Shown here one piece after another: positions 1 through 4,366 of a stretch of 32,000 nucleotides of DNA. The notes beneath the pieces were generated by a model. The model did not search any database. It saw nothing but the letters and a program-made list of their open reading frames with translations, and had not been told where the DNA came from. Position 1 is the stretch's first letter. The number at the start of each line of letters is the position of its first letter. Location: positions 2,021,646-2,053,645 of the forward strand of contig NC_012489.1 of assembly GCF_000010305.1 (NCBI RefSeq), in the 5' to 3' direction. The position numbers and the translations under genes are program-made. Source of the stretch: Gemmatimonas aurantiaca T-27 (lineage in GTDB: Bacteria; Gemmatimonadota; Gemmatimonadetes; Gemmatimonadales; Gemmatimonadaceae).

Positions 1-1598
1 GCTTGCCGACGACGCGCGATAGCGTTCCAGTCAACCGGAAGCCACGACGCGTCCCGACTACGTGGGTCCAGTCGAAATCCACCCCCTCTACGTGTCCAGG
101 TGAGGAACTGCTGTGCTTCCAGTCGTTCGAGGATGGGGACGAGTCCCATCGTCCCACCGAATCTCTGGGGAAGGCCCTGCAGATCAACCGCCGCGCCCGT
201 CTCCAGAGCGGCGCCGGCCACACGCCACAGGGCGCGCAAGACGTCGCGGTCGGTGGCGCGTGCTCCGGTGAGCTCCCGCGTGATACGGCCGGGTGAGGCG
301 ATGAGACGGACCCACACCTGATGCAACGAGGGCAGTTCCTCCGCACAGGCGCCGGCGCGGAGCAGCGCTCGCAACGCGGGGCCCGTCTTGCGTTCGCCGA
401 TCTTGCTGGGCAAGCAGGCAGCCAGGGCTTCGGGCGTGAGCGAGACAAATCCCTCGTGGTCGGCCTGGTCCCGTAGGGCACGCCAGACCAACTCCACGAC
501 CGGGCGCTCGGCGTGTGTGCTGTTGATGAAATACTCGTGCGTGAACCGATCGGGATAGCTGTGCAGCAGCACGCAGGTGCTGGCCTGGCCGTCGCGGCCG
601 GCCCGACCGGCTTCCTGGTAGTACGACTCCAGTGTGCCGGGCATGGAGTGATGCACCACGAGCCGCACATCGGGTTTGTCGATGCCCATGCCGAAGGCGC
701 TCGTGGCGACGATGACGCGCGAACGCTCCTCCATGAAAGCATCCTGGGCGCGCTGGCGTTGTCGATCATCGAGGCCTCCATGATAGGCCGTGGCCTTGAT
801 GCGACCCCGCAGGAGCACGGCCGTCACCCGCTCCACCGCTTTTCGGGTGGGCGTATACACCACGGCTGCACCTGGCGCGTCCCGCAGCCACTCGATGGCG
901 GTCAGATCCTTGTCGCGTTGCGTGCGCGTGGGCACGACATGGTAGGTGAGATTGGTGCGGTCGAAGCCACCCACCACCACCTCGGGCTGGCGCAGCAGCA
1001 ACTGGCGTGCGATGTCGCGGCGTACCTCAGGAGTCGCGGTGGCCGTGAGCGCCACGGTCTGTGGTGAACCGAGCTGCTCGCGAATGTATCCGATGCGTCG
1101 GTAGCTGGGCCGGAAGTCATGCCCCCATTCACTGATGCAATGGGCCTCGTCGACGGTCAGCAGCACCACGCCGATCGTGCGCAGTTGTTGCAGCATGCGT
1201 CCGGCTTCCATGCGTTCCGGCGCGAGATACAACAACCGCAAGGAGCCATCGCGGGCTCGTGCCATACGATCGGCCACTTCGCTGACCGAGAGCGTGCTGT
1301 TGATGTACGCAGCCTCGATACCACGCCGCGCGAGCGTCTCCACCTGATCCTTCATGAGGCTGATCAACGGTGAGATCACGATCGTCAGCCCATCCCGCAC
1401 CAAGGCGGGCACCTGAAAACACAGCGACTTGCCACCGCCGGTGGGAAGAACAATCAGGGCATCACGGCCAGATAGCACCGCTTCCACGGCGCGAATCTGC
1501 GGCGGCCGGAAATCGGGATAGCCGAAGTACCGCAGCAGCGTGGCGCGTGCCTGTTCGAGCGTTCCAAAGTGCCCGCGGGGGGTGGGGGCGGTCGACAT
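1..1598 (-). CDS. recQ: ATP-dependent DNA helicase RecQ; N-terminal ~532 codons, C-terminus runs off the left window edge
   Basis: Absent from the ORF track because there is no stop in the window. Hand translation of the minus strand from ATG at 1598 gives MSTAPTPRGHFGTLEQARATLLRYFGYPDFRPPQIRAVEAVLSGRDALIVLPTGGGKSLCFQVPA... Motifs seen: motif I PTGGGKS, DEAH box LTVDEAHCISEWGHDFRP, LTATAT, AFGMGIDKPDVRLVVH, and motif VI YYQEAGRAGRDG. The frame stays open to position 1. Confidence 0.9.
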   Translation of the reverse strand, partial: MSTAPTPRGHFGTLEQARATLLRYFGYPDFRPPQIRAVEAVLSGRDALIVLPTGGGKSLCFQVPALVRDGLTIVISPLISLMKDQVETLARRGIEAAYINSTLSVSEVADRMARARDGSLRLLYLAPERMEAGRMLQQLRTIGVVLLTVDEAHCISEWGHDFRPSYRRIGYIREQLGSPQTVALTATATPEVRRDIARQLLLRQPEVVVGGFDRTNLTYHVVPTRTQRDKDLTAIEWLRDAPGAAVVYTPTRKAVERVTAVLLRGRIKATAYHGGLDDRQRQRAQDAFMEERSRVIVATSAFGMGIDKPDVRLVVHHSMPGTLESYYQEAGRAGRDGQASTCVLLHSYPDRFTHEYFINSTHAERPVVELVWRALRDQADHEGFVSLTPEALAACLPSKIGERKTGPALRALLRAGACAEELPSLHQVWVRLIASPGRITRELTGARATDRDVLRALWRVAGAALETGAAVDLQGLPQRFGGTMGLVPILERLEAQQFLTWTRRGGGFRLDPRSRDASWLPVDWNAIARRRQ

Positions 1599-1635: not shown

Positions 1636-1684
1636 CATTTCATTGCGCGCGTGATCGTTTCGGTGCGACAAGGTCCGAACAACC

Positions 1685-1847
1685 TTGCCACGGATTACGC
1701 GGAAACCACACGGAAACGACACGGATACAAAAGCCTTTGTTGATTGGTGCTTCTCCAGCCGTGCATTGTCTTCAGTTTTTCATTTCTTTGATTTGCTGTT
1801 GCAGTACCCGTGTCGTTTCCGTGTGGTTTCCGCGCAATCCGTGGCAA
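1685..1847. repeat. Large inverted-repeat element: 44-bp arms (42/44 complementary) flanking a 75-bp AT-rich core; MITE/REP-like element or structured RNA
   Basis: Left arm 1685-1728 is TTGCCACGGATTACGCGGAAACCACACGGAAACGACACGGATAC. Right arm 1804-1847 is its reverse complement except at 2 positions (1697/1835 and 1725/1807). The core 1729-1803 is 30/75 G+C by my count, in an otherwise GC-rich window. Each arm carries CACGGA(A/T)AC-type units at 11-bp spacing. Confidence 0.9.
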
Positions 1848-1858
1848 AGCAGTTCCCG

Positions 1859-4366
1859 TTACACGGCGCGTGCGAAGTGACCCCGGGTAAAGGCACCATC
1901 GAGCAGCACGCGTGATGCACTGGCAGGGGTTGGCGCACCCTGTGCCAGCGCGTCGAGGATGTCACGGTAGCTGCGCACCAACTGCTGCACCGGATCCCCA
2001 GCCACATTGAACACCATCTGATAGCCACGGATACCCTGCGCCCACAGCGCCGGCAAATACTCGGACGCATCGATGGGACGCGAATGCAGCAGCCGGTTGC
2101 GACACGCGCTGTCGGTCGCCACACCGAAGGTGTATCCAGCCGGATCGGTGAGTGACACCTGCGTGTGTTTTTGCACGCAGAGATCACGACACGTCGTGGC
2201 CTCGCGATCGAAGGCGGCGCTCAACACGCAGTGTTCGATGGTCATGCCTTCCGGGCGTCCGTACACCAGCACGTCGAAGCCTGCCCCGCCCCACGGTGCC
2301 GTGAGGGCCTGCAGTTCCTCTACTGTGAGCTCGATGGATGCCACCAGTTGCGACGCACCCACTTCGAACATCATGGCGGCCGTGTGCTGGTTGAACACGT
2401 TGGTGGCATAGTCCGCGATCACGTCCCGATCGCCGCCGAACTCACGAATGAGTCCGAGGTGGCCGCTGAGCAGTGGCAATCCCAGCGCCAACCATGGCGC
2501 GATCGCCTTGCGCTCTTCGGGGCGCACGATGGTGGGCGTGCGCAGGCGCAGCCCCACACCCTGCGCGGTCAGTTCGTCGCGTAGCGTGATCACGCGGCTG
2601 CGCGGCGGTGCCGGGTGACGGAGAAACGGATCGAACACGACTTCGGTGGCACCACCGGCGGCCGCTTCACGCGCCGACTCGAGATCGTACACAATCACGC
2701 GCAATGCGGGCGCTGCGCTCTCCGACCTCGCCTGGCCGCTCACCGGCACGGCGGTCACCGCATCGGCGATGTGCGCGACACGCACCGCCTCGTCGCTGCT
2801 GCGTGCCCATCCCAACTGCTCTTCGAGTTGCTCGACCGCGTCCTGCCGAATGCGATTGAGTTCGCTGACCGGAAGGAAGAGGCCATCACCGAGTCCCGAC
2901 GTGTCTATGCTGCCAAGCTTGAAGGCGGTGCCGCCGAGTCGACCCAGTTGCTCACGCAACTGCGTCATGTCGAGGGACCGCTTGCTGGCTGGTGCGAGCG
3001 TGACTTCACCACGCACCGACGACTCGAGTTCTCCGGCACGCCAGATCGTCTTGAGTGGTCCACCAGCATGACCGAAGCAGCGCACGTCCACGCGGATCGC
3101 CCCCACGCGCTCCGGCATCGGCACATTGGCATACGAGGCCTGCGCCTCACTCAGCAACTTGGCATCACTGGTGCGTACGACACGCCAACCGCTTGCCACG
3201 CGCGTGGTGCGCAATCCGCTGCGCACCGACACCACCTGTCGATGCAATCCATCACGCGTGCCCATCGCGCGCACACTTTGCACCGTGCCACCGATGTTGG
3301 CCGACGACGATGGATCGGGTGATTCGAAGCCCAGACCATCCCCCACCGTCAGTGGACGCGATACTTCAACAATGAGATCGTCGCCCTCCTGCCCCACCAC
3401 CGTGCCCAGTGTCAGCCCACGATTGTCCGGCTGCGTGCGGGTGATGTACTCGCGACCCTGCCGACCACCGTACATGCCACCCGTGTTGCCGCGGCTGAAG
3501 ATCTGCACCAGCGGTTCCACTTCGTCGATCGTCGGCGCACGTCCTTCTTCACCACGCGCGATGCCGTCGAGCCAGCCGCGATAGGCCTTCGTCACCGTCG
3601 CAACGTACTCGGGCTTCTTCTTGCGCCCTTCCACCTTGAGGCAGCCGACGCCGAGCTTGGCGATCTCTTCCAGGTGATCGTGTGCGGCCAGATCCTTGGT
3701 GCTGATCAGGTACCCCTGATCGAGCGTCGCACCGGTGCTGTCGTCGTTGAGCGTGTAGTCTTTGCGGCATGACTGCGCGCACGATCCACGATTGGCCGAG
3801 CGCTCGCTGATCATGCCGGACATGAAACACTGTCCGGAATACGAGATGCAGAGCGCGCCGTGCACGAACGTTTCGAGTCCGAGATCGGGCACCGCTTCGC
3901 GAATGAGGCGGATGTCCTCGAGCGTGTTTTCACGCGCCAGCACGACACGTTCGATACCCAATTCCTGCATGACCAGCGCGCCACCGGCATCGTGCACGGT
4001 CATTTGTGTGCTGCCGTGCACCTCGAGCTGGGGGTACACCTGCTGGATGAGGCGAACCACGCCCAAGTCCTGCACGATCGCGGCGTCGATACCGCGGTCG
4101 ATGCACTCGCCGAGATACACCAGCGCTTCGTTCAGCTCGTGCGGCTTGATGAGCACATTGAACGTGAGGTAGACCCGCACGCCCCGGGCATGGGCAATGG
4201 CGCAGGCCTGTCCGAGCTCATCGAGCGAGAGCTGGGCGCCTTCATCACGCGCATTGTACATGGACGCCCCGAGATACACGGCGTTCGCCCCATTGGCGAC
4301 AGCGGCGCGTACGGCATCGAGCGTGCCGGCGGGGGCGAGTAGTTCGGGAACGTGACGACGGGACAT
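1859..4366 (-). CDS. Peptidase U32 family protein, long two-module form (835 aa)
   Basis: ORF track, 835 aa. The U32 signature is present as ETFVHGALCISYSGQCFMS. The N-terminus ELLAPAGTLDAVRAAVANGANAVYLG is typical of the family. The C-terminal half contains a second U32-like module (VLVYGRPEGMTIEHCVLSAAF...CRDLC). High GC3. Confidence 0.85.
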   Translation of the reverse strand: MSRRHVPELLAPAGTLDAVRAAVANGANAVYLGASMYNARDEGAQLSLDELGQACAIAHARGVRVYLTFNVLIKPHELNEALVYLGECIDRGIDAAIVQDLGVVRLIQQVYPQLEVHGSTQMTVHDAGGALVMQELGIERVVLARENTLEDIRLIREAVPDLGLETFVHGALCISYSGQCFMSGMISERSANRGSCAQSCRKDYTLNDDSTGATLDQGYLISTKDLAAHDHLEEIAKLGVGCLKVEGRKKKPEYVATVTKAYRGWLDGIARGEEGRAPTIDEVEPLVQIFSRGNTGGMYGGRQGREYITRTQPDNRGLTLGTVVGQEGDDLIVEVSRPLTVGDGLGFESPDPSSSANIGGTVQSVRAMGTRDGLHRQVVSVRSGLRTTRVASGWRVVRTSDAKLLSEAQASYANVPMPERVGAIRVDVRCFGHAGGPLKTIWRAGELESSVRGEVTLAPASKRSLDMTQLREQLGRLGGTAFKLGSIDTSGLGDGLFLPVSELNRIRQDAVEQLEEQLGWARSSDEAVRVAHIADAVTAVPVSGQARSESAAPALRVIVYDLESAREAAAGGATEVVFDPFLRHPAPPRSRVITLRDELTAQGVGLRLRTPTIVRPEERKAIAPWLALGLPLLSGHLGLIREFGGDRDVIADYATNVFNQHTAAMMFEVGASQLVASIELTVEELQALTAPWGGAGFDVLVYGRPEGMTIEHCVLSAAFDREATTCRDLCVQKHTQVSLTDPAGYTFGVATDSACRNRLLHSRPIDASEYLPALWAQGIRGYQMVFNVAGDPVQQLVRSYRDILDALAQGAPTPASASRVLLDGAFTRGHFARAV

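Follow-up and report, generated by a model that had tools for sequence, protein, structure and literature searches.

The sequence between a gene for a U32-family protein and recQ in Gemmatimonas aurantiaca T-27 is probably one copy of a low-copy, dispersed, non-autonomous foldback repeat family found only in Gemmatimonas and a small number of close relatives. The copy spans positions 1677-1855 of the window, the 32,000-nucleotide stretch of T-27 DNA analysed here, and forms a hairpin of 179 bp. The kind of family is already known, as that of MITE- or ERIC-like palindromic repeats; the family itself is new, and no description of such elements in Gemmatimonas was found in the literature searched.

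The element between the U32 gene and recQ

The features of the region are as follows.

3..1598, minus strand: RecQ-type DEAD/Helicase_C helicase (open reading frame list; domain matches)
1677..1728, no strand assigned: left arm, with an outer GAAC-n-(G/A)C-CTTGCC terminus followed by four CRCGGA(A/T) units (inverted-repeat search; family arm profile E = 4e-14)
1729..1803, no strand assigned: apical loop of 75 nt, 40% G+C, unique within the T-27 genome
1804..1855, no strand assigned: right arm, mirror of the left arm (profile E = 1.7e-15)
1859..4366, minus strand: U32-family protein of 835 aa (open reading frame list; Pfam Peptidase_U32 at 1.4e-81 plus DUF3656)

The first-pass annotation had described arms at 1685-1728 and 1804-1847 that pair at 42 of 44 positions, and recomputation gave the identical count. 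This 44-nt core was placed correctly, but its outer limits were too short: the true arms are 1677-1728 and 1804-1855, an extended inverted repeat of 52 nt per arm with 47 of 52 positions complementary. Both mismatches of the core (1697/1835 and 1725/1807) are indeed A opposite C on the plus strand and are therefore G.U in minus-strand RNA. The 75-bp loop contained 40.0% G+C on recomputation, compared with 65.6% for the window. The CRCGGA(A/T) units begin at 1689, 1698, 1709 and 1720, with spacings of 9, 11 and 11 bp, and are mirrored in the right arm. These phased, iteron-like units, already pointed out in the first pass, are genuine and form the most distinctive trait of the repeat family. 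The loop had no further genomic match longer than 14 nt; its ends retain the AT-rich CAA../..TTG apical motif of the family and its middle, about 45 nt, is a private insert, long loops being unrelated between copies. As had been noted earlier, no target-site duplication was visible at this element.

The stop codon of the U32 gene (1859-1861) and the ATG start codon of recQ (1596-1598), both on the minus strand, are separated by a gap of 260 nt, most of which the element occupies. The element ends 3 nt from the U32 stop codon and 78 nt from the recQ start codon, and the conserved recQ leader (1599-1676), as delimited by comparison with relatives, lies outside it. At about 1640-1665 this leader carries ..CATTGCGCGCGTGATCG.. 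(plus strand), a motif that is palindromic in part and recurs in the spacers of G054, G011, G014 and G044, among them U32-recQ spacers of 63 and 92 nt. The CATTGCGCGCGTGATCG motif looks like a conserved recQ operator or promoter element outside the foldback element. A metagenome scan with the recQ-leader pattern gave no match.

Copies in T-27 and in other genomes

The T-27 assembly is a single contig of 4,636,964 bp with 64.3% G+C. Copies were searched by BLAST with the element and then with an nhmmer profile built from 14 arms. Copy number and distribution had been proposed in the first pass as a way to tell a mobile repeat from a unique site, and the searches recovered a dispersed family, with about 12 loci in T-27 and members in 12 of the 87 Gemmatimonas genomes (T-27 and 11 other species). 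Seven full copies are located at about 438.9, 875.5, 1726.3, 2023.3 (the U32-recQ copy), 2426.0, 3889.1 and 4486.2 kb. The two mini copies, whose arms have two units each, lie at 148.4 and 4230.2 kb; at 457.8 kb there is a one-sided copy made of three 10-nt units in tandem, and a sister subfamily with a different terminus is present at 388.9 and 3943.5 kb.

The common plan of the family is (G)AAC-n-GCTTTGCC, four units, an apex, the mirror arm and GGCAAAGC-n-GTT(C). The CRCGGA(A/T) units, each of about 10 bp, sit at offsets of about 0, 9, 19-20 and 30. Elements measured 110-270 bp with inverted arms of 45-52 nt, the short form being 110-125 bp. The apex is either short and AT-rich (18-28 nt, with a common CAACAA/TTGTTG motif) or carries a private insert, giving long apices of 61-157 nt of mutually unrelated sequence. 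The arms of the U32-recQ copy were 82-98% identical to those of copies at unrelated loci. The arms of the sister subfamily (C1:388860-389095 and 3943470-3943535; L141, L139) start with AACAGCGGGGGGAACACTGATGA, followed by CACAGAAAC, CACGGAAC and CACGGATAC units; of its two members, one is a full copy whose loop is about 135 nt long and the other a solitary arm, both beside ordinary genes.

All copies in T-27 were intergenic. Eight of the 10 main-family copies were located 3-35 nt past a stop codon; in four of these cases the flanking genes converge. The sole copy in a clearly divergent spacer was the aberrant one-armed copy. In relatives, about 17 of 25 copies had a stop codon within about 55 nt according to crude ORF calling. 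The genes beside one-armed or clustered copies were ordinary ones, encoding amidohydrolase, beta-lactamase fold, creatininase, Big_2 and Lgt proteins. No more than about 0.9 Mb separates nine of the 12 T-27 loci from coordinate 0, the region of the two parS sites. Canonical parS sites were found in T-27 only at genome positions 38041 and 38375, neither of which adjoins a family copy, and a likeness of the unit to parS or to a DnaA box was dropped. In a Gemmatimonadaceae MAG (L083 3355-3375), a parS-like 16-mer, TGTTTCACGTGAAACG, is present between two adjacent family copies.

Carrier genomes contained from 10 to about 35 matches each, which is low for an active mobile element. In a phylum-wide sample the family was detected in 6 of 401 genomes, representing 2 of 147 genera. 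The elements of the second genus (L138) have the same plan and the same CRCGGAT core, and so do those on a few metagenome contigs with 72% G+C, which also keep the phasing. Two 3-kb contigs of 71-72% G+C that were binned as Thermoplasmata archaeon BP_739 carry short, nearly loop-less palindromes of CGCGGAAAC units (L084 2500-2560 and L086 1255-1330); the palindrome on L086 directly follows a TGA stop triplet, with the plan seen in the Gemmatimonas family, and the archaeal binning of these contigs looks doubtful. Public matches to the arm pattern came from Gemmatimonas and from Gemmatimonadaceae MAGs, and one of them (L085) was the same as G054 over the stretch compared. Nothing similar was found in plasmid and phage collections. 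A metagenome scan with a degenerate arm pattern returned mostly chance matches, with real arms in 9 of the 80 loci retrieved. One match to a 72-nt periodic pattern, considered as a CRISPR-like array, was such a chance match: a stretch of a Vicinamibacterales MAG (L087 1560-1960) that looks coding carries about 10 tandem copies of a 36-nt repeat, and one of its reading frames, translated by eye, would give a putative His/Thr/Asp-rich peptide repeat.

The adjacency of the U32 gene and recQ was compared in the 28 genus genomes, T-27 included, in which both protein anchors were recovered. Family arms were present in the spacer of T-27 only and absent in the 27 others, with spacers ranging from 63 to 311 nt. 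Spacers of 270-311 nt occur in L050 and other relatives; that of L050 is G+C-rich, with a possible small extra ORF that is not in T-27. G054, the sister of T-27 on a rough tree of two gene fragments, has flanks that are 78-82% identical and a spacer of 92 nt without the element, and carries at least 8 family loci elsewhere. In G011, the U32-recQ spacer holds a degenerate, different palindrome. By parsimony, the copy would have been gained after the split from G054, a loss in G054 being the less parsimonious alternative; with the flanks of relatives only about 80% identical, the insertion junctions cannot be placed to the base and insertion is separated from loss by parsimony alone (absence in the 27 others). 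The mobile relic of MITE or REP type that was among the first-pass candidates is supported by the dispersed copies and by this empty site in the closest relative.

Presence and absence also differed at other orthologous sites, including between sister species. At locus G the element was present in G000 and G054 and missing from G011, G081, G009 and G005, whereas loci D and H had copies in three to four species. Inspection of 29 copies showed no target-site duplication, the outer boundary being fuzzy and the empty sites only about 80% identical; the metagenome scans yielded no strain-level empty site. The empty sites had no obvious pre-existing hairpin when inspected unfolded, so the element adds a stem-loop rather than replacing one. 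Draft assemblies often break within family copies.

Other palindromic arrays were seen in relatives. At locus D (875.5 kb), G005 (L103 2192-2343) and G009 (L104) carry a different foldback family at the orthologous site, with the same AAC-A-G termini and with arms of GAGGAT units, at a spacing of 8-9 bp, around a centre rich in G+C. Matches to this second family numbered 45 in G005 and 5 in G009, and G000, G011 and G054 had none. The start of contig 38 of G005 (L135 1-769) contains a 352-bp unit in tandem (2.2 copies, 90% matches), in which family arms are interleaved with a second palindrome of 10-nt CTGCAGTTCT units to give a chain of overlapping inverted repeats. Together these few loci suggest a superfamily whose members share their ends while the unit sequence is interchangeable.

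Arm pairing, unit cores and the search for a mobilising enzyme

The two arms were compared in 29 complete copies from several genomes. Read as complements, arms of one element were 86.8% identical, compared with 80.6% between elements and a maximum of 83.6% in 2000 permutations. Deviations from the consensus were common to both arms in 69 cases and limited to one arm in 148. RNAalifold on 17 short copies predicted 33 pairs, with double compensatory changes at 8. In this alignment each of the four units kept its C-CGGA core unchanged in 17 of 17 copies, while the spacers between cores varied. Paired changes are illustrated at locus D, where CCGCGG/CCGCGG and ATGA/TCAT in G000 correspond to CCACGG/CCGTGG and ATCA/TGAT in G054. 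The co-variation of the arms together with the invariant CGGA cores indicates that both the pairing and the core motif are maintained. Some unit variants were genome-specific and common to the copies of one genome, which points to subfamilies or concerted evolution. The pairing may be kept by a need for a single-stranded hairpin (RNA or DNA), or mutationally, through template switching that corrects one arm from the other.

The G.U mismatches of the U32-recQ copy had been taken in the first pass as weak support for RNA-level pairing, a point that did not generalise. Wobble-compatible mismatches numbered 45 vs 52 between the strands in the 29 copies, and RNA-level selection deduced from a G.U strand bias was rejected, no such bias being found across the family. 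Transitions made up 59% of the mismatches, consistent with ordinary mutation bias, and at locus G the sense strand holds A.C mismatches (arm alignment, by eye).

Spread of the family, present or past, would have relied on a trans-supplied enzyme with the repeated CGGA cores as its recognition sequence, and none was found. The Y1 (RAYT) transposase domain, PF01797, had no matches in T-27 or in the carriers G005, G006, G009, G011, G012, G014, G046, G048, G054 and G055, and two matches in carrier G043; these were the 11 carriers sampled besides T-27, with carrier G081 outside the sample. Apart from G043, the 15 genomes with PF01797 matches were non-carriers. The RAYT/REPIN reading was therefore rejected, the Y1 transposase being absent from T-27 and from 10 of the 11 sampled carriers. 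Transposase loci of the rve and DDE_Tnp_1 types exist in T-27, and a parent transposon was rejected among them because the ends of the IS, rve and DDE elements are unrelated to those of the foldback element. Three copies of a 1276-bp IS, 99.9-100% identical, lie at C1:135092-136367, 535126-536403 and 4262430-4263705; the IS encodes an rve-type transposase and has TGTC.. ends. No other clearly active IS was seen in T-27, and this one has no relation to the foldback repeats. No longer element bounded by family arms was found in T-27, relatives or metagenomes, and no autonomous parent with the same ends in plasmids, phages or the metagenome scan. Every arm pairs with its mate within 250 nt, so no long version was seen.

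Tentatively, and with a fairly low expectation that this will hold, the phased CRCGGA(A/T) cores may be the recognition array of a putative non-RAYT enzyme that binds hairpins or ends, perhaps a recombinase or a transposase with folded single strands as its substrate.

Alternative readings, known repeat families and significance

The same phased cores of about 10 bp could instead be head-to-tail sites for a clade-specific DNA-binding protein, the foldback copies having been domesticated as nucleoprotein sites. Such a protein would be nucleoid-associated, partition-like or a regulator, and the copies would form a regulon or chromosome-organisation set rather than selfish DNA. The invariance of the CGGA cores next to variable spacers fits this idea, as do the recurrence of core and phasing in another genus (L138) and in unrelated metagenome contigs of 72% G+C, the retention of some copies at orthologous sites in three to four species, and the position of 9 of the 12 T-27 loci within about 0.9 Mb of coordinate 0, near the two parS sites. 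However, independent double-stranded binding sites would have no need for arms that co-vary as complements, the copies sit at gene 3' ends and not at promoters, and presence is patchy even in sister species. Unit number varies as well (two units in the minis and a one-sided three-unit tandem array in one copy), which looks like slippage of a tandem array and not like a fixed binding architecture. The canonical parS sites are located elsewhere and no binding protein was found, and we consider a domesticated site of this kind unlikely. The first-pass suggestion of a unique nucleoprotein, recombination or origin-like site did not survive, given that the element is multi-copy, has loops of 18-157 nt of unrelated sequence and is absent at this site from 27 other genomes. 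Less probable again is an attC-like site of the resident integron integrase, either a solitary attC or an empty cassette at a secondary site. T-27 has a complete integron at C1:4143440-4148689 (L134 440-5689), whose intI reached 409.7 bits with the TIGR02249 model (cut-off 265) and which carries an array of at least 6 classical attC sites in the same orientation as intI, with a cassette array low in G+C (55-57%). An integrase above the cut-off occurs in 58 of the 87 genus genomes; the element is also comparable to an attC in size, being an imperfect palindrome that has ..AAC at its start and GTT.. at its end and follows gene 3' ends, and the 3-4 nt inside AAC/GTT are its worst-paired columns, like an unpaired central spacer. 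Yet the resident attC sites follow the classical pattern (TAAC ... GTTA/G, variable top, bulged L box), and their similarity to the element termini was no higher than that of shuffled sequence. An attC site is defined by R''/R' boxes (RYYYAAC / GTTRRRY), an unpaired central spacer and extrahelical L-box bases that create strand asymmetry; the element has AAC and GTT, but its arms are symmetric, without bulged bases or strand asymmetry, and the base after GTT is mostly C, not a purine. Copies are solitary, far from intI, never in the cassette array and without a gene travelling along, and presence of the integrase does not track the family carriers. An attC origin was rejected after the T-27 array had been located, folded and found unrelated to the element; the unrelated termini, the lack of bulged bases and the absence from the array make this reading very improbable.

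We give the lowest probability of all to a locus-specific structured RNA or oversized terminator that regulates the U32 gene, recQ or both, with the likeness elsewhere due to chance or convergence. The hairpin is very stable: minus-strand RNA of 1600-1860, the fold that had been proposed as a check, reached -124.7 kcal/mol compared with a shuffled mean of -77.5 kcal/mol (z = -10.1), and 0 of 200 shuffles equalled it. In the sense-strand RNA of this copy both core mismatches become G.U pairs, and a place between two co-directional genes would suit an insulator. Against this, the site is empty in 27 other genus genomes in which both flanking genes are conserved, the arms match copies at unrelated loci at 82-98% identity, and the wobble mismatches have no strand bias across the family. 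Neither arm is followed by a U-tract or T-run, so termination is not predicted by the classical rule, and the element held no terminator-like site combining a G+C-rich stem with a U-tract; the stem and loop limits of the terminator scan were narrower than this hairpin, which makes the absent T-run the relevant point. No sigma-70-like promoter was detected in the AT-rich loop. Rfam 15 gave no match at the gathering score for this copy, the sole match being a plant miRNA precursor model at 49 bits against a gathering score of 100, a long-hairpin artefact, and five other copies gave no matches. Copy number and synteny already largely refute a locus-specific RNA or terminator.

As a dispersed foldback repeat, the family shares defining traits of MITEs, being small, non-coding and dispersed with inverted repeats, and differing in presence at orthologous sites (1 of 28 genomes at U32-recQ; 2 filled and 4 empty at locus G), but no autonomous parent element was found. 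Like the Correia/NEMIS MITEs of Neisseria, it consists of small non-autonomous elements with long terminal inverted repeats and an AT-rich centre, which form a long hairpin when transcribed and vary in presence between related genomes. In contrast to Correia/NEMIS, neither a target-site duplication nor a parent IS with matching ends was seen, almost all of the element consists of the inverted repeats, which are built of tandem sub-repeats, and there are about 10-35 copies per genome, not hundreds.

The ERIC/IRU elements of enterobacteria and the YPAL elements of Yersinia are imperfect palindromes of about 110-130 bp that are intergenic, mostly transcribed and located beside gene 3' ends. They have low to moderate copy numbers, size variants that arise from inserts at an internal site and an expected effect on mRNA folding and stability, and they are not known to have an associated transposase. 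The architecture of ERIC/IRU, an intergenic palindrome of about 127 bp with internal-insert size variants, recurs in the Gemmatimonas family, with its short apices of 18-28 nt and its insert forms of 61-157 nt. This likeness is one of architecture only, and homology of sequence to ERIC is unlikely given the different phylum. Unlike ERIC, the arms consist of about four direct sub-repeats of about 10 bp with an invariant CGGA core, and the family is limited to one genus-level clade.

REP and REPIN elements are mobilised by RAYT transposases (PMC3116915, PMC3733652). A REP unit is an imperfect palindrome of 20-40 bp with a conserved GTAG or CGTC tag, and a REPIN consists of two inverted units (PMC3733652). 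The text of that REP survey contains no mention of Gemmatimonas (PMC3733652). The present family resembles REP/REPIN elements in being extragenic palindromes near gene 3' ends, in having two inverted halves that form one long hairpin, in the occurrence of sequence types within a genome and in the breaking of assemblies at copies. It differs in that the halves are direct-repeat arrays and not palindromes of 20-40 bp, with no conserved GTAG or CGTC at either end, so that neither a tagged palindromic unit nor, apart from the one carrier above, a RAYT gene was found. The foldback (FB) transposons of Drosophila also have long inverted arms of short tandem sub-repeats, with a variable middle and a varying number of units; they are eukaryotic, of kilobase scale and in some cases have coding middles. 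The resemblance to FB transposons is purely architectural, with no sign of relatedness.

At the U32-recQ locus, the most likely effect of the foldback copy would be to give the 3' end of the U32 message a strong and very stable stem-loop, which precedes the conserved recQ leader. In the manner of REP and ERIC elements, such a stem-loop could act as a barrier to 3' exonucleases and as a partial insulator between the U32 gene and recQ, rather than as a dedicated regulator. The RNA-stability element among the first-pass candidates may hold as a secondary effect of this kind. In terms of annotation, the hairpin adjacent to recQ becomes a copy of a dispersed repeat and not a regulatory RNA, an origin or a recombination site, and the same label fits about a dozen loci in T-27 and tens in relatives.

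To our knowledge, almost no repeat biology has been described in the Gemmatimonadota. The family is unsurprising in kind and moderately interesting to specialists in bacterial repeats. If the recognition array of a non-RAYT enzyme proved true, the sister families with AAC-n-G termini and other units would represent co-diversification of element and enzyme, and the system would be a new means of mobilising bacterial foldback repeats in an under-studied phylum. The traits that suit the family as a model are its tandem 10-bp units with an invariant CGGA core, the strict complementarity of its arms and the occurrence of sister families at one orthologous site. It can be used to ask how palindromic repeats spread in genomes that lack RAYT and why they gather behind stop codons.
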